In this document: positions 15,559-54,373 of the stretch, piece by piece
How positions within the stretch are numbered: the stretch's first letter is position 1
Layout: each line of letters opens with the position of its first letter
UHGV virus genome: UHGV-0016284
Length of the DNA: 55,548 nucleotides
Source of the DNA: a virus
Direction: 5' to 3' (one strand)
The notes under the pieces: model-generated
The model's database searches: none
The model's input: only the letters and a program-made list of their open reading frames with translations
What the model was told of the DNA's origin: nothing
Position numbers and translations under genes: made by a program

Positions 15559-15576
15559 TATGTTATTGCCTCCGGT

Positions 15577-21163: not shown

Positions 21164-21380
21164 TCTTGTGTCTCCTATGGTTAGAGTGAACGCGCGGGCG
21201 GGCATCCCATTAGCATTAGATAGCAGTGACTGACCGCTCAACAGATCCCGCCGTTGCGTGATATTTGTTTTTCGCTTCGCAGCGACACCGGATTTTTAAA
21301 GAGCTTAAGTGGTTGGCCTTTTGTGCTTTCCGTTATCTTTTTTCTTGCATCATTGCAACTATGGCCTTACCTTGTTTGCA

Positions 21381-21425
21381 AGTTTACAGAATGGCGTTGA
21401 CAGGTCAAGGCTTTAAAAATACGTT
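21381..21425. promoter_or_regulatory. divergent overlapping promoters with palindromic -35 region (immunity-region control)
   Basis: Plus strand: TTGACA (21397-21402), 17-bp spacer, TACGTT. Minus strand: TTGACC (complement of 21403-21408), 16-bp spacer, TAAACT (complement of 21381-21386). The two -35 elements form the palindrome TTGACAGGTCAA. Confidence 0.4.
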
Positions 21426-22239: not shown

Positions 22240-22268
22240 TTGACTCGGTGTTTTACGGGGCGTATATT
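22240..22268 (+). promoter_or_regulatory. strong sigma70-type promoter for the rightward operon
   Basis: TTGACT (22240-22245), 17-bp spacer, TATATT (22263-22268). Confidence 0.55.
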
Positions 22269-22312: not shown

Positions 22313-22349
22313 GCTCTTTAACAATCTGGTCAGCCGCTGGAAGTGCGGC
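22313..22349 (+). promoter_or_regulatory. nut-like site: boxA-like sequence plus boxB-like hairpin
   Basis: GCTCTTTAA (22313-22321) resembles boxA (CGCTCTTA); hairpin GCCGC-tggaagt-GCGGC at 22333-22349 resembles boxB. Confidence 0.35.
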
Positions 22350-22406: not shown

Positions 22407-22697
22407 ATGAGCGTTACAATCATGTATGGCAAATGTGACAGTAAACTGAATGCCAGGGAACGCAGAAAAATAAAAAGAGAAAACGAAAGAAAATCATCAC
22501 CTGCAATTAATAAAACAGACAATGTGGATAAAGCTATTCGATTTGCAAACGAGGAAAGGTGCAAACCAAATAGCATTAAAGAACGTCGCAAAGGATCAGT
22601 AAAATGGTATATGGAAAATGAAAGCGGCAGCTACTACCACGCAACGCAACCACGCCATTTAGGGGAAAAACCCCTGGATAAAGTCCGCTATCATTAA
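22407..22697 (+). CDS. basic protein with arginine-rich motif, candidate N-like antiterminator
   Basis: First gene after the promoter and nut-like site; KLNARERRKIKRENERK near the N-terminus resembles an arginine-rich RNA-binding motif. Weak assignment. Confidence 0.35.
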   Translation: MSVTIMYGKCDSKLNARERRKIKRENERKSSPAINKTDNVDKAIRFANEERCKPNSIKERRKGSVKWYMENESGSYYHATQPRHLGEKPLDKVRYH

Positions 22698-24963: not shown

Positions 24964-25145
24964 AATTAGTGAAAGTTAAAGACCTGAAAGGCGGCGAAAA
25001 GATCCGCACATGGTATGGCTATAAATTTATTGTCGCTGCCTTTTCTTTCGGGCCAGGGGGTCAAGTAACATTATTTGATGAAGAAGACGACGAGGTGGGT
25101 AAATGGCATCTTGAACAATATGTTGAGGTGTTAAATGAAAATTAA
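24954..25145 (+). CDS. hypothetical protein (63 aa)
   Basis: ORF in operon, overlapping neighbours. Confidence 0.35.
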   Translation: MAIKLVKVKDLKGGEKIRTWYGYKFIVAAFSFGPGGQVTLFDEEDDEVGKWHLEQYVEVLNEN

Positions 25146-25467
25146 ATTACATAAGGCCTATGATAGCGAAACAAATAAGCTATCACTATTTATTGTGTTC
25201 GAACGCCGGATCGTGTGTGTACCGTGGGCGCGTCGCTTTAATGATGCAGCAGGGCGGCGGCAGTTCGCGTTAGACATGTTGTTACGCGGTTGCGGCCTTA
25301 TGCGCCCACTATCTGATTTAAAACGGATGATGCCTGGATCGTTCGGTCAGATTGATGAAATCGAAGTAAGCCAGGACGAGCTAAAACGGGCGCGTGATTT
25401 GTTCCTTTCAAGCGAAGGAAACCCGTTTAATTCAGAAACTGAAATGAAATGGCATCACCCACTATAA
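25135..25467 (+). CDS. hypothetical protein (110 aa)
   Basis: ORF in operon. Confidence 0.4.
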   Translation: MKIKLHKAYDSETNKLSLFIVFERRIVCVPWARRFNDAAGRRQFALDMLLRGCGLMRPLSDLKRMMPGSFGQIDEIEVSQDELKRARDLFLSSEGNPFNSETEMKWHHPL

Positions 25468-25480
25468 AAGGATAAATATC

Positions 25481-26101
25481 ATGAACGACATCAAAACAGC
25501 TTATTCACTTGGCAGCAATGGCATGTTAATCACTCGCTACACTGAAGATGCAAGTTTTCATGAAGTGGAAACGAAGGATTATCACGAAGTATTAAAAGAT
25601 ATGGAAGCTGGCGCGTATGACGCTGATTTAAACCTGGCTATGCAGATTGTTGATATTATGATGGACGCGTCGATCCGCGATTATGTGTCTTTAAACGCTG
25701 AAGAAAAAACTGCCGTAGCTCGTTATGTCTTCTGCCTTGCTTTCGTAAAACGCATGGAAGAAGAATTTGGACGAGTACCAGTGCCGGAAGAAATTGACCC
25801 ACTGGCGTTCGGAAGTGCTGTTATTTTCCCGTTAGATGAAAATCATACGGGTAGCGTTGCGCTGTATTCTGTGCGCGGCGTAATGAAAAAAGTATTCGAG
25901 GCTAAAGCGTTACAGAAGTGTATTGATGAAGGGCACAAAGAGGAAGAAGTAAAGGCGATCATGCCATTATTTTACGGCGAAATGGTTGGCAATAATATGC
26001 GCGCAAATGATTTAGGTGTACAGGCAGCTATAGCTGTGCTTAATGACGCGCGGAAAGACGCACAGCTAGTGCCTGAACCTGAAAAACGCGTACTTCATTA
26101 A
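25481..26101 (+). CDS. hypothetical protein (206 aa)
   Basis: ORF in operon; no motif recognised. Confidence 0.5.
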   Translation: MNDIKTAYSLGSNGMLITRYTEDASFHEVETKDYHEVLKDMEAGAYDADLNLAMQIVDIMMDASIRDYVSLNAEEKTAVARYVFCLAFVKRMEEEFGRVPVPEEIDPLAFGSAVIFPLDENHTGSVALYSVRGVMKKVFEAKALQKCIDEGHKEEEVKAIMPLFYGEMVGNNMRANDLGVQAAIAVLNDARKDAQLVPEPEKRVLH

Positions 26102-26104
26102 CAT

Positions 26105-26120
26105 TGTGATTGCGATCACA
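26105..26120. promoter_or_regulatory. perfect CRP-consensus-type palindrome TGTGA-N6-TCACA
   Basis: tgtgattgcgatcaca at 26105-26120 in a 100-bp intergenic gap; further TGTGA half-sites just downstream (tgtgatcgca, ttttgtgaact). Confidence 0.4.
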
Positions 26121-26200
26121 TAAATATACATTTTGTTTTGTGATCGCATGTCCGTTTTGTGAACTGAAATCAAAAGGTTTACGGCGCGGAGGAAAACAAG

Positions 26201-26419
26201 ATGGCCCGCGAATTAATGCTTTATTGCGTTGAGGGTGGCGTAGGCCATGATGCCTATGTCGCAGGGAAAAGCTATCCAGCCGATGAAGTACTTTCTAACA
26301 TGCACTTCCGGGAAAATGAAAGCCGGGTGTCTGTGTGGAAACGGTGCATTGATGGTATTGAAGTTGTAAGTATCGAACGGTATTTAGGCACATTTGATTA
26401 CGGTGTTATTGAGGCTTAA
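26201..26419 (+). CDS. hypothetical protein (72 aa)
   Basis: Strong GGAGGA ribosome-binding site before the ATG. Confidence 0.45.
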   Translation: MARELMLYCVEGGVGHDAYVAGKSYPADEVLSNMHFRENESRVSVWKRCIDGIEVVSIERYLGTFDYGVIEA

Positions 26420-26421
26420 TT

Positions 26422-26514
26422 ATGGACGACACATTGTTTTATATGTGCTGTTGCTGGGGTTTTATTGCCTTATGCCTGTTTATCAGGTGGTTTATTGAAT
26501 ACCATATGAGGTGA
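26422..26514 (+). CDS. hydrophobic Cys-rich minipeptide (30 aa)
   Basis: MDDTLFYMCCCWGFIALCLFIRWFIEYHMR; GAGG ribosome-binding site; packed between two ORFs. Confidence 0.3.
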   Translation: MDDTLFYMCCCWGFIALCLFIRWFIEYHMR

Positions 26515-26517
26515 TAT

Positions 26518-26712
26518 ATGGAACAAAAAACTGATTATAGAATACCTGATAACCTAATATTAGTTGGCATTGGTTTTGGGTGTAGATTTGTATCTGACAC
26601 AAAAGGGGAAATTTATTTAGTGCGCATCATTGATGGCGTTCAGCATATAAGAAGGCTAGGACTTTACATCAAAGCATTCAGAAGAGGTTATTTAAAAGCT
26701 CATGAAATTTAA
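26518..26712 (+). CDS. hypothetical protein (64 aa)
   Basis: ORF with GAGGTGA ribosome-binding site. Confidence 0.4.
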   Translation: MEQKTDYRIPDNLILVGIGFGCRFVSDTKGEIYLVRIIDGVQHIRRLGLYIKAFRRGYLKAHEI

Positions 26713-26905
26713 ACACTATAGGGAATGGAAAATTCCAGAATCAGCAACAAAGGCAGCGCCAGGTAATGTTTCTGGCGTTTATTTTTATATGGATGGCAAA
26801 TGGTATTTCGGCAGCAGGCCGGATCATTTCTATCTCGAGTTATGCAAGCCGCACACATGGGATATTAAAGAGCGCGTGAAAGATGGGGTAATTGATGAGG
26901 TTTAA
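26702..26905 (+). CDS. hypothetical protein (67 aa)
   Basis: ORF in operon. Confidence 0.4.
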   Translation: MKFKHYREWKIPESATKAAPGNVSGVYFYMDGKWYFGSRPDHFYLELCKPHTWDIKERVKDGVIDEV

Positions 26906-26910
26906 ATCCT

Positions 26911-27144
26911 ATGGCTTTATTCAATATGTCAGAGCCGCAATTTAACGCCGTAAAAATTGCCGCCCGCGCCGCGCTTTCGGCCTGCAAAGCGGAGGTAGAA
27001 AAGAACGGCTACAGCGATAAAGCCACGCGGCTGATACTCGACAAGCATTATCGCAAGGTCGCCCCGCTAATCAGTATTGAGCGTTTTGTGTGGTTGGTGG
27101 GGTATCTGAATAACCGCTGGGGAACAGATCAGGATTATTTCTAA
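26911..27144 (+). CDS. hypothetical protein (77 aa)
   Basis: ORF in operon. Confidence 0.4.
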   Translation: MALFNMSEPQFNAVKIAARAALSACKAEVEKNGYSDKATRLILDKHYRKVAPLISIERFVWLVGYLNNRWGTDQDYF

Positions 27145-27153
27145 GGGGGCGTA

Positions 27154-27693
27154 ATGAAAAATGATTACGGCGGCAGCCATACGCCGAAAGAAATAAAAGA
27201 CTTATGGCAAACGCCAAAACCCGTTTTTAGAGGAATGGATCGCGAGTTCGAGTTTGTCGCAGATGTGGCAGCAAACGAAGCAAACGCATTAATACCGCGA
27301 TATATAACCGAAGAAATGGACACGCTCCATTATCCGTGGGGAGCGGTGGCAATGCCTGGTGAGTATGTCTGGATGAATCCGCCATATTCTAATCCGGGGC
27401 CATTCGTTGATAAGGCGGCGATAGAACATCAACGAAATCACATTGGCTGTGTAATGTTATTGCCCGCTGACATTTCTGTTAGCTGGTTTATGAACGGCGT
27501 GGAGACGGCAAACGAATGCCGATTAATCACGCGCGGGCGGCTGGCGTTTATCAATGCTGCAACAGGTAAACCAGCAAGTGGAAACAATAAAGGGAGCTTG
27601 TTCTTGATCTGGCATCCACGATGCAGACATGAATGTATTTTCACGCAGATAACACGTAAAGAGCTATATGCAAGAGGTGCAGAAAATGAATAA
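27154..27693 (+). CDS. DNA N6-adenine methyltransferase (phage Dam-like, orphan)
   Basis: Catalytic NPPY motif (VWMNPPYSNPGPF); size and context typical of lambdoid nin-region Dam methyltransferases. Confidence 0.75.
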   Translation: MKNDYGGSHTPKEIKDLWQTPKPVFRGMDREFEFVADVAANEANALIPRYITEEMDTLHYPWGAVAMPGEYVWMNPPYSNPGPFVDKAAIEHQRNHIGCVMLLPADISVSWFMNGVETANECRLITRGRLAFINAATGKPASGNNKGSLFLIWHPRCRHECIFTQITRKELYARGAENE

Positions 27694-28177
27694 AGCGGCT
27701 GAATTGCTGAGACTTGCGGCTGAAACTATCGAGGCAAGAGGAGAACAAAACGGATACGATCGAAAAGAAGAAAAATCAGCGCCAAAAATAGCCACTATTT
27801 ACAACGCTAAGAAGGGGACAAGTTTAACCCCGCTTGATGTATGGGATCTAATGATTTGCCTCAAGGAGGCGCGATTAGAGGCCATTTTAAGCAATGGAAG
27901 CGATCCGCTCGACACTCTCATAGACCTTATTGCTTACAACGCGCTAAAAGCGGAGCAAATATTAGCGGAGCGGGAGGAAGAGCAAAAGAAAAAACAGGGT
28001 GATTTTGATATGTCGTTAAATTGCCGCTGTAAGAAAACCTCAATACCAGGCGACCTAATCGCTAGTGGTGAAGTAATAATGAATGGTAGCTTCCAGCTTG
28101 GTAACGGCTGGCGGTTTAATAAAGAGGCTTTATTGTATACACCGAAGGATCATAAAAATGGAAAGGGTGACGATTGA
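27686..28177 (+). CDS. hypothetical protein (163 aa)
   Basis: GAGGTG ribosome-binding site before ATG 27686 (track start 27668). Confidence 0.45.
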   Translation: MNKAAELLRLAAETIEARGEQNGYDRKEEKSAPKIATIYNAKKGTSLTPLDVWDLMICLKEARLEAILSNGSDPLDTLIDLIAYNALKAEQILAEREEEQKKKQGDFDMSLNCRCKKTSIPGDLIASGEVIMNGSFQLGNGWRFNKEALLYTPKDHKNGKGDD

Positions 28178-28661
28178 CAGGTTATTAGCCTGCGTTTATG
28201 TCGCCGTTTTTGTGATCATCAACCTTATTGTTAACCACTGCGGCCCGTGGGTAATTCCGATCACCACGGTAGCCGCCGTGTGTGTCAATATGATGATCCG
28301 CGACTTTCTGTTATATGACGGCGGCCTGAAATGGTCGGCTACAACATGCGCCGTCGCTGGCGCAATCACGGTGCTAATAAATTACGATGCAGGAATGGTG
28401 GCAATAGCGTCATTCGTCGCGGTTGTTTCAGGTGCGCTTATATCTGGCGGTGTTTACCGGGTTTTGCCTGGTGATTTCGATTCGAAGCGCTGGCCTGCAA
28501 ATATAGCTTCAGCCATCGGGGATGCGTTAATTTTCCCGACGCTATCGTTTATGGCGTTTATGCCGGAAATATCAGCAATGCAGTTTATCTCAAAAATGGC
28601 AGCGGTAACGGTGATCACTATCATCATGCGCCGCTATTTCACGTTTGAGGGTAGGAAATGA
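28158..28661 (+). CDS. integral membrane protein (4-5 predicted TM helices); possible DUF165/VUT-type transporter
   Basis: Hydrophobic throughout; loose similarity by eye to YhhQ-family transporters (ASAIGDALIFPTLSFMAF versus YhhQ ASTLFGNVSDTLAFFFIAF). Family assignment is tentative. Confidence 0.5.
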   Translation: MERVTIDRLLACVYVAVFVIINLIVNHCGPWVIPITTVAAVCVNMMIRDFLLYDGGLKWSATTCAVAGAITVLINYDAGMVAIASFVAVVSGALISGGVYRVLPGDFDSKRWPANIASAIGDALIFPTLSFMAFMPEISAMQFISKMAAVTVITIIMRRYFTFEGRK

Positions 28662-29185
28662 ATTGGGATGATTATTTTATATACAATCCAGATACAGGTA
28701 AGTTGTACTGGAAATATAGAAATGACATAGAAGAATCAAGGCGTAAACAATGGAATGCGTGTAATGCTGGTCATGAAGTTGGACATATTGGCGGTAGCGG
28801 TGGGTATCTTAATACAGCGCTTACCGTTGGTGGAAAGCGTTATAATTTAAAAGTTCACAGAATATGTTATGAGATGTACTATGGCCCAATACCTGAAGGA
28901 AAGGAGGTTGATCATATAAATCACATTAAAACAGATAACAGAGCAGTAAATCTTGGATTAAAGGACCATAAAGATAATATGCGCAACATGTCTTTGATGG
29001 TAAACAATACCAGTGGATGTACTGGCGTACATAAAAACAAACATGGGAAATGGGTTGTTAGAATAGGAGGAGGCAAAAGAGGCAATAGGATTTATATAGG
29101 TTGTTTTTCTGATATTAATGACGCAATAAAAGCGCGGCGCGACGCTGAAAAAGAGTATGGATATCACGAAAACCACGGCAAATAG
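28658..29185 (+). CDS. HNH endonuclease with AP2-like DNA-binding domain (homing-endonuclease-like)
   Basis: YNLKVHRICYEMYYGPIPEGKEVDHINHIKTDNRAVNL (HNH_3-like); CTGVHKNKHGKWVVRIG....IYIGCFSDINDAIKARR (AP2-like). Confidence 0.65.
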   Translation: MNWDDYFIYNPDTGKLYWKYRNDIEESRRKQWNACNAGHEVGHIGGSGGYLNTALTVGGKRYNLKVHRICYEMYYGPIPEGKEVDHINHIKTDNRAVNLGLKDHKDNMRNMSLMVNNTSGCTGVHKNKHGKWVVRIGGGKRGNRIYIGCFSDINDAIKARRDAEKEYGYHENHGK

Positions 29186-29286
29186 AACAAGCCACCGCCG
29201 CGCGGCTTCGCCCGTGCTGTATTCCTGGCTAACGACCGGGCCATCACGCGGACTACGCTTAACCGCGTTTTACCGGACTAAAGTTT

Positions 29287-29359
29287 ACAAAATGGCGTCA
29301 TTGCGTGATATGGATCACATAATGGCGCTTTTCGCCTTGTTCTGGTGTATCCATTTTGT
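29287..29359. promoter_or_regulatory. nested inverted repeats (TTTACAAAATGG ... GTGATatggATCAC ... CCATTTTGTA)
   Basis: ACAAAATGG at 29287-29295 and its reverse complement at 29351-29359 flank the palindrome gtgatatggatcac; intergenic between the HNH gene and the next ORFs. Confidence 0.3.
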
Positions 29360-29440
29360 ATACTTCAAGCAAACAAAATGCTCTTTAAAAATCCGGCAGC
29401 GCTGAAATGCGTAGAAATCACCTGAAAATGAGAGGGCATT

Positions 29441-53846: not shown

Positions 53847-54019
53847 ATTGCCCCTCCCCCCTTGTCGGTACTGCTTTTTCTTCTTGCTTACTATATACAT
53901 CTTGTCACGCCTTATGTGAAGCCATTTTGTAAACTGGTTATAATTCTTGTGATGAATTTCTCATTTTTCGCGTAGAAGCGCGTAAAGATGTATGCAATAT
54001 GTAACTTATAGGGGGAATC

Positions 54020-54373
54020 ATGCCAGAAGTTTTCAGATGGACGCCGCAAAGAAGCTACAGCGTGACCAGGGAACCAAATGTGTCTGTCGTTAAACTTGGT
54101 GATGGTTATGAACAGCGCCAGGCGAAAGGGATTAACACGTTGCTTGATAGTTATACCCTGGTTTTCAAAGGCAGTAGCGCGGGATGTGGTGATGGTGGAA
54201 ACGTGGCGATCCAGGCTGAAGCATTTTTGAGGGCGCGCGGCGCTGTCGATGCTTTCTACTGGACGCCTTCGATGGATGGGGTGCAAAGGCTTTTCGTTTG
54301 CCGTAGCTGGAGCATGACCAAAGACGGGCCTGTGTACACGCTAAACGCAACGTTTGAACAAGTTGTTGGCTAA
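54020..54373 (+). CDS. M: minor tail protein M (lambda M-like)
   Basis: Aligns by eye with lambda M along its length (FRWTPQ.....V.....V.KL.GDGYEQRQAKGIN..L.SYTLVF........EAFL...G....FYWTP.......F.C..WS.........ATFEQVV). Confidence 0.8.
   Translation: MPEVFRWTPQRSYSVTREPNVSVVKLGDGYEQRQAKGINTLLDSYTLVFKGSSAGCGDGGNVAIQAEAFLRARGAVDAFYWTPSMDGVQRLFVCRSWSMTKDGPVYTLNATFEQVVG

Follow-up and report, generated by a model that had tools for sequence, protein, structure and literature searches.

A conserved CRP-type palindrome in the early operon of a temperate coliphage relative: a candidate repeated promoter module overlaid on RNA hairpins

At lac P1, a class I promoter activated by cyclic AMP (cAMP) and its receptor protein CRP, the 16-bp CRP site is centred at -61.5, and 17 bp separate it from the -35 hexamer. 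Control of phage promoters by host CRP is also already known: cAMP-CRP directly represses the pir, dam and recE promoters of coliphage T1 (Laganenka et al. 2019, PMC6737242). Among temperate coliphages, mEp021, mEp515, mEp010 and their kin form the Nus-dependent mEpimmI group, whose reported frequency in the source collection equals that of the lambdoid phages (PMC11893012). Here we analyse a 55,548-nucleotide stretch of the virus genome UHGV-0016284 (the whole stretch is called the window below), which shares 84-90% identity with mEp021, mEp515, mEp010 and their relatives, and which carries an exact CRP-consensus palindrome in the gap between its homologues of mEp021 genes gp25 and gp26. We suggest, tentatively, that this palindrome may be the activator site of a repeated promoter module whose DNA also encodes two RNA hairpins, here called A and B.

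Like lac P1, the locus has a 16-bp site of the TGTGA-N6-TCACA type 17 bp before a weak -35 hexamer, with 25.5 bp from its centre to that hexamer, and like lac P1 and activator-dependent promoters in general it combines an AT-rich interval with a weak promoter core in the gap module. Unlike lac P1, the gap module has a 16-bp spacer (18 bp in lac) and a site centre near -60, the window's -10 hexamer lacks the essential A, and the site lies inside an operon and within sequence that also forms RNA hairpins; the gap element is a candidate member of the class I CRP promoters. As in T1, host CRP would here act directly on phage promoters and tie phage development to sugar influx (PMC6737242). The two cases differ in that CRP represses in T1 while the geometry here suggests activation, and the phages belong to different families; the main text of the T1 paper does not contain the phrase 'binding site', so no T1 site is set beside the window's. 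The window's PR, PL, N-like gene and three nut sites (boxA at 21296 on the minus strand, at 22313 and at about 29380) resemble lambda-type early operons as described for mEp021 (PMC11893012). That description, in which the term CRP occurs 0 times, has no annotated promoter ahead of nutR2 or between gp25 and gp26, and the hairpin close to nutR2 appears there only as a predicted terminator, t4.

The sequence at exactly 26105-26120 is tgtgattgcgatcaca, the only perfect TGTGA-N6-TCACA in the window, and it matches the CRP consensus at 10 of 10 core and 12 of 12 extended positions (TGTGAT-N4-ATCACA). The first-pass annotation had reported this exact match, and had rightly placed it in the early operon: the gap lies downstream of PR, nutR1, the N-like gene, erf and ssb and on the same strand as all of them, and it is an intergenic gap (99 bp) ahead of a gene with a ribosome-binding site (GGAGG, 8 nt from the ATG). 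The two further TGTGA motifs that it had listed as half-sites are also present, at 26139-26143 and at 26158-26162, the latter extending one base beyond the end that had been given (26161), but their role as CRP half-sites does not hold up. Neither has a TCACA partner 6 bp off, and the second, which is unconserved, reads TGTAA in 30 of the 38 unique versions of the gap that we aligned from 7 GenBank phages and 40 IMG/VR contigs. A perfect site is expected 0.08 times in the window, and at least one arises in 6 of 100 shuffles; five sites have no more than one mismatch, where 1.67 would be expected, and four of these five fall in regulatory gaps (21427, 26105, 29304 and 53948).

The palindrome heads a module that occurs at three loci, composed of a 16-mer, 17-18 bp, TTGnnn, a 16-bp spacer ending in CCRTTTTG, and TAWACT (Table 1). 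A search with nhmmer and the gap profile identified the second copy at 29302-29373 (E = 9.6e-7), which reads CGTGAT-ATGG-ATCACATAA and then TCCATTTTGTATAC 36 bp past ATCAC; both this distance, from ATCAC to TCCRTTTTGT, and the 17 bp to the -35-like hexamer are the same as in the gap. Among 37 unique relatives, the GTGAT and TCACA arms of this copy, the TTGT of its -35-like hexamer and its TATACT are invariant, while its 4-nt centre takes 13 variants and the spacers on either side of TTGT take 19 and 16. This is the conservation pattern expected of an activator site with its promoter, and no RNA fold explains the isolated TTGT island. TTGTTC-16-TATACT is a probable and previously unannotated promoter just upstream of nutR2, with a start predicted about 8 nt before boxA. 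The third copy lies on the minus strand at PL, a promoter that was called independently with TAAACT as its -10 hexamer, and TAWACT therefore serves as a -10 in this phage. In all 25 unique relatives the CRP-like arms at PL are invariant and its promoter is conserved.

The alignment of the gap copy is less informative than that of the nutR2 copy. Nucleotide diversity is 0.13 in the gap; in the flanking genes it reaches 0.20-0.25 at third codon positions and 0.05-0.08 at the other two. By this comparison the gap is under purifying selection; its first positions, 26102-26105, are neutral (0.45). A conserved core runs from G26106 to T26121 (GTGAT-T(G/C)CG-ATCACAT), in which G26106, T26107, A26120 and T26121 are invariant, and the TTG of the -35-like hexamer is kept as T in 36, T in 37 and G in all 38 versions; the gp26 Shine-Dalgarno sequence GGAGG shows no variation. 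In L042-L044, the clade that diverges most, the 3' arm of hairpin A is gone and another gene lies downstream; this clade still has GTGA-N6-TCAC, TTGTCC and TAAACT, with a new palindrome centre in L043 (TGTGACATCGTTCACA). Decay of the -10 and of the palindrome appears coupled: 13 of 14 versions with an intact -10 keep all nine core bases, as against core substitutions in 12 of the 24 with a defective one (Fisher p = 0.012, uncorrected for phylogeny). In L009, L011 and L012 the gap copy has drifted while the nutR2 copies are still canonical. A gap copy that drifts beside a constant nutR2 copy argues for a recognising factor of fixed specificity, as a host protein would be, and the 19 phage ORFs (open reading frames) scanned include no CRP/FNR-family protein or other obvious candidate, making a host factor the simplest one. 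The module was not found in more distant relatives (L095, L140-L142), and a search of genome contigs with gp25 found no relatives.

The explanation that we favour, at a little short of an even chance, is that the palindrome is a CRP-type activator site in a class I promoter module whose sequence also forms RNA hairpins. A protein site with its promoter is favoured by the fixed geometry, the TTGT island, the PL copy and the L042-L044 clade, and by the coupled decay of -10 and core and the clustering of near-perfect sites in regulatory gaps; RNA structure is favoured by the strand asymmetry of the fold, the conserved centre of the gap palindrome, the pair-preserving changes in hairpin B and the compensatory change in hairpin A. 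The two readings are compatible, and each explains something that the other leaves unexplained. We propose that a cAMP-CRP dimer bound to the palindrome near -60 could recruit the C-terminal domain of the RNA polymerase alpha subunit and activate a weak sigma-70 promoter by the class I mechanism, giving a transcript with a predicted start at about 26172, inside the early operon. The PR transcript of the same DNA would fold into hairpins A and B, and the transcript from about 26172 would not include hairpin B's 5' arm, so that the gp26 ribosome-binding site would be exposed. To judge from the perfect core, CRP probably binds the window site. Activation of the promoter is doubtful in the window copy because its -10 reads TGAACT, mEp021 and like relatives (TAAACT) having the better promoter, and cAMP dependence of the downstream genes is less likely in the window than in these relatives. 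Control of the region by host sugar status is plausible. The first-pass annotation had proposed that cAMP-CRP links downstream early genes to carbon status, and this proposal gains from the repeated and conserved element, the lac-like geometry, the sites in regulatory gaps and the T1 precedent; it loses from the failed half-sites, the neutral T26105, the TGAACT hexamer and the hairpins, which explain much of the conservation.

Several features of the alignments and scans weigh against CRP control. No column of the gap varies more than T26105 (A in 17, C in 12 and T in 9 versions), and this first T, on which the perfect match depends, is evolving neutrally; G26108, at a position of key contact with CRP, remains G in 33 versions and has become A in 5; and the perfect 10/10 core is present in 6 of the 38 relatives, with at least 9/10 in 25 and 8/10 in the rest. 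The -10-like hexamer is TAAACT in 14 of 38, has G at the critical position 2 in the window, and reads TAAGCC, TGAGCC or TAAGTC in 15 relatives, all of these changes keeping the pairing of hairpin B. A -10 with A at position 2 and T at position 6, which the window's gap copy lacks, is present in those 14 gap versions and in the nutR2 copy (TATACT in 37 of 37), whose -35-like TTGTTC scores 3 of 6. Consensus scans called no promoter or terminator in the gap (25000-27500 scanned) and no promoter at the nutR2 copy, and with the 16-bp spacer the gap palindrome is centred at -59.5 to -60.5 from the predicted start, the canonical value being -61.5. Because the gap copy and the nutR2 copy are paralogous, the geometry that they have in common is a single observation. 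CRP does not explain the invariant flanks of the nutR2 hairpin (CATTG and TAATGGCGC), which reach beyond the typical CRP core, or the conserved centre bases C26113 and G26114 of the gap copy, which hairpin A predicts. Likewise, the paired changes A26118G and T26141C in L009, L011 and L012 keep hairpin A and reduce the CRP core to 8/10 (TGTGG...TCGCA).

Folding adds to the case against CRP. Over 26095-26205 the plus strand folds at -33.1 kcal/mol with z = -3.5 (0 of 200 shuffles as good), compared with z = -0.56 for the minus strand; across the gap family the medians are -3.4 and -1.9, the plus strand being the more stable in 37 of 38, and across the nutR2 family the values are -4.6 and -3.1. 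Hairpin A, which takes its 5' arm from the right half of the palindrome, has 88.9% of alignment cells paired and one compensatory pair, the double change just described; its register is in the minimum free energy (MFE) fold of 23 of 38 versions and absent in L042-L044. Hairpin B is found by RNAalifold in 38 of 38 and by MFE in 37, with 98.9% of cells paired. Its basal UCCG pairs with the CGGA of GCGGAGG, taking in the first three bases of the gp26 Shine-Dalgarno sequence 8 nt before the ATG, and a stable stem of this kind on a ribosome-binding site, kept in relatives, is what defines intercistronic hairpins that sequester Shine-Dalgarno sequences. Unlike characterised examples, hairpin B shows one-sided covariation only, and its trigger (protein, small RNA or temperature) is not assigned: seven pairs vary, always from GU to AU or GC and never by double changes, and these pair-preserving substitutions are the same ones that damage the -10-like hexamer. 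Covariation is weak throughout and does not exceed shuffle controls. At nutR2, a 14-bp hairpin (29295-29328) has the palindrome at its tip; this hairpin equals TERM_4 (t4) of mEp021, contains G-U pairs working on the plus strand only, and is enclosed by a stem of two inverted 13-mers (-46.7 kcal/mol, z = -2.9); these stems are invariant and without covariation, though their neutral neighbours are saturated with changes.

A purely structural account would make hairpin A a processing or stability element and hairpin B a mask over the gp26 ribosome-binding site, with the likeness to a CRP site incidental. The strand asymmetry of the folds, the presence of hairpin B in all 38 versions with pair-preserving changes only, the compensatory change in hairpin A, the conservation of C26113 and G26114, and the plus-strand G-U pairs beneath the nutR2 palindrome speak for this account. 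It must contend with the single compensatory pair and the unexceeded shuffle controls, with a clade that lacks hairpin A and keeps the palindrome, with nutR2 stems that show no covariation beside saturated loops and spacers and so point to sequence-specific constraint, with the invariant TTGT island and the constant distance to the TAWACT hexamers, which it leaves unexplained, and with a similar site upstream of PL that cannot form a good hairpin; Rfam, too, supplies no family match. We consider it a serious contender and nevertheless unlikely to be the whole story. A different dimeric protein, of phage or host origin, could instead bind GTGAT-N4-ATCAC at all three modules independently of cAMP. 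Fixed arms around a free centre, together with the geometry, point to a protein without saying which, the invariant nutR2 flanks exceed a typical CRP core, and many early ORFs have no known function. Yet the CRP consensus is matched at all 12 positions of TGTGAT/ATCACA, Pfam reveals no DNA-binding regulator in the flanking genes and no CRP/FNR-type domain in the scanned ORFs, and the nutR2 copy does not vary in step with the drifting gap copy, as fixed specificity predicts; an operator for a CI-like repressor was rejected, since the repressor-controlled PR region has no GTGAT-N4-ATCAC. Such a protein seems to us rather improbable.

Chance is a harder case to make. The motif was picked by scanning the whole window for any motif, shuffles produce a perfect site at the frequency given above, the first T is neutral, and the gap is a mosaic boundary at which L042-L044 carry another downstream gene, so that close kinship or a cassette recombination boundary might account for its conservation. 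The gap is nevertheless half as diverse as synonymous sites, the element recurs in the same layout, and near-perfect sites cluster in regulatory gaps, which together leave a chance match very improbable. Least credible of all is a methylation switch in which the Dam methylase of phage or host would act on the GATC sites at 26114-26117 and 26142-26145. Each arm of hairpin A holds one of them, and among the phage genes is a Dam-family methylase (27154-27693, PF05869), but the GATC motifs are not conserved, many relatives having GATT, TATC, GGTC, GATT(G) or GAAC, and GTCACA variants occur at the nutR2 copy.

Other candidate structures in these regions were set aside. The two halves of the palindrome could form a hairpin of their own (26105-26110 with 26115-26120), in which 84.8% of cells pair, and this was rejected with the outer pair broken in 27 of 35 and the fold in the MFE of 4 of 38. 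A nut site in the gap was likewise rejected, since the boxA search of the window found no GCTCTTTAA there. No intrinsic terminator was called in the gap, where hairpin A is followed by AUGUCCGUUUUGU and not by a U tract. The nutR2 hairpin, TERM_4 of mEp021, fails the T-run rule; it has no proper U tract, and a GGCGC-TTTT-CGCC element downstream of it is unconserved. In the variable spacer of the nutR2 copy, a search by eye for a conserved small hairpin found shifting registers and no consistent pairing, and a 38-amino-acid ORF at 29292-29405 was judged not coding, L060 having gained a stop. Rfam gave no match at the gathering score anywhere in the window, and only sub-threshold chance matches within 25950-26350 at E up to 10.

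Table 1. Positions of the palindrome, the modules, the hairpins and surrounding features in the window
Feature	Position	Strand	Details
CRP-type palindrome TGTGATTGCGATCACA = TGTGAT-TGCG-ATCACA	26105-26120, centre 26112.5		exact unique match
Gap module			TGTGATTGCGATCACA, 17 bp, TTGTGA, 16 bp, TGAACT, then gp26; palindrome centre 25.5 bp to -35-like, 47.5 bp to -10-like
-35-like TTGTGA	26138-26143	+	17 bp after 16-mer; contains second TGTGA
13-mer copy CCGTTTTGTGAAC	26152-26165	+	variant of CCRTTTTGTRWAC; contains third TGTGA
-10-like TGAACT	26160-26165	+	last bases of gap 13-mer copy
Hairpin A	26111-26148	+	TGCGATCACA (26111-26120) with TGTGATCGCA (26139-26148), short inner stem; MFE
Hairpin B	26151-26190	+	UCCGU.UUGUGAACU (26151-26165) with GGUUUACGG.GCGGA (26176-26190); MFE
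gp25/gp26 gap	26102-26200	+	99 bp, between 206- and 72-amino-acid ORFs
206-amino-acid ORF	25481-26101	+	upstream of gap; mEp021 gp25 homologue
72-amino-acid ORF	26201-26419	+	downstream of gap; mEp021 gp26 homologue; phrog_28996
Shine-Dalgarno GGAGG of gp26 homologue	26188-26192, ATG 26201	+	8 nt apart
nutR2 module			CGTGATATGGATCACA, 17 bp, TTGTTC, 16 bp, TATACT; nutR2 boxA 15 nt on
nutR2 module region	29283-29391	+	between HNH-like gene and NinF
Inverted 13-mer	29283-29295	-	5' end of nutR2 region
CRP-like CGTGAT-ATGG-ATCACA	29304-29319		tip of hairpin 29295-29328
-35-like TTGTTC	29337-29342	+	nutR2 copy
13-mer with -10 TATACT	29351-29363, -10 at 29359-29364	+	nutR2 copy
nutR2 boxA	29379-29391	+	boxA search
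PL module		-	TTTGATACAAGTCACA, 18 bp, TTGACC, 16 bp, TAAACT, then nutL
CRP-like site at PL, plus strand TGTGACTTGTATCAAA	21427-21442	- (module)	9/10; about 61 bp upstream of predicted start
PL -35 TTGACC	21408-21403	-	promoter scan, 9/12
PL -10 TAAACT	21386-21381	-	16-bp spacer ending CCATTCTG; promoter scan
nutL boxA	21304-21296	-	downstream of PL
PR TTGACT-17-TATATT	22240-22268	+	promoter scan
nutR1 boxA	22313	+	boxA search
N-like gene	22407-22697	+	upstream of gap
CRP-like site TGTGATGAATTTCTCA	53948-53963		9/10; right after TATAAT 53939-53944
13-mer copies	6355, 15575, 21382, 22226, 29283, 42255	-	
13-mer copies	26152, 29351, 49760, 53922, 55522	+	

Other near-perfect sites differ in their surroundings. 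The CRP-like site at PL stands 26 bp before the ATG of the repressor gene (21468), which is on the opposite strand; CRP on this site could both activate PL and hinder transcription entering that gene. At 21397-21408, TTGACAGGTCAA contains two -35-like hexamers that abut, one on each strand. TTGACA, the one on the plus strand, is specific to the window, relatives having TTAACA, CTTTAA or TTTTAA, and it is therefore not established as the promoter of the repressor gene. The site at 53948-53963 is preceded by a 13-mer copy at 53922-53934, in a gap that has small minus-strand genes in a cluster on one side and a tail protein M-like gene (54020-54373) on the other; its position would fit repression. 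GTAATTCCGATCAC at 28251-28264, inside a membrane-protein gene (28083-28661), is identical to the degraded gap palindrome of five relatives (L031, L032, L035, L039 and L040); it is probably a chance match, as no 13-mer or promoter-like hexamers follow it.

The spacer and -10 of the module overlap a 13-mer, CCRTTTTGTRWAC, that is found phage-wide in 11 copies when one mismatch is allowed, where 0.79 would be expected and 0 of 100 shuffles yield as many; its core, CRTTTTGT, has 30 copies in the window and an expectation of about 4.4. Most copies of the 13-mer are intergenic, flanked by divergent or consecutive genes, and they are often paired, inverted or direct, at distances of 16-55 bp; at PL the 13-mer ends in the six bases of the -10 hexamer. 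The motif stands directly before a Shine-Dalgarno sequence at 15575 and 49790, and some reverse-strand hits are mere ACAAAATG start-codon contexts. The 13-mer may act as a promoter element or operator, or as a motif in RNA.

Annotation of the gap and its neighbours is sparse. The PHROGs matched by the flanking genes all lack an assigned function, Pfam gives no domain in these genes, and the published records of related phages annotate nothing in the gap except a gene of 29-33 amino acids in mEp010 and mEp554. That gene was called in PHANOTATE-based records (1211-1312 in L003, 1211-1300 in L004), is not annotated in mEp021, mEp515, mEp013, mEp044 or MagusPhagus, and looks like an over-call; its equivalent in the window, a TTG-initiated ORF of 40 amino acids (26110-26232), overlaps the hairpins and the gp26 start and was judged not coding. 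Further downstream, at 28658-29185, the window has a 175-amino-acid ORF where mEp021 has a cytosine methyltransferase gene (gp33). A motif read by eye, VDHINHIKTDN, makes it look like an HNH-type endonuclease, and a 255-bp gap is left between it and NinF.

Taken to its full extent, the CRP reading would place a cAMP-CRP class I site before the PL-nutL, nutR2 and gp25/gp26 promoters of the mEpimmI phages, with palindromes that double as stems of a terminator-like hairpin at nutR2 and of hairpins A and B in the gap, each serving as DNA for CRP and as RNA in read-through transcripts, and with gp26 translated only from promoter-proximal transcripts. We regard this full version as unlikely as it stands. 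CRP sites at all three early units, a promoter before nutR2 and a palindrome with a double use would be new. Should CRP prove inactive here, the gap would be an ordinary structured intercistronic region. The gap element offers a compact test case of one sequence constrained both as protein-binding DNA and as an RNA hairpin. If CRP does act on these sites, a temperate coliphage group prevalent in the human gut would link its early operons to host cAMP, which would provide a mechanism for nutrient-dependent lysis-lysogeny behaviour and a reason for the third nut site, in that nutR2 would have its own promoter. Were all three promoters under such control, early development, and possibly the expression of prophage genes, with ipe-linked haemolysis as an example, would be gated by the carbon status of the host.

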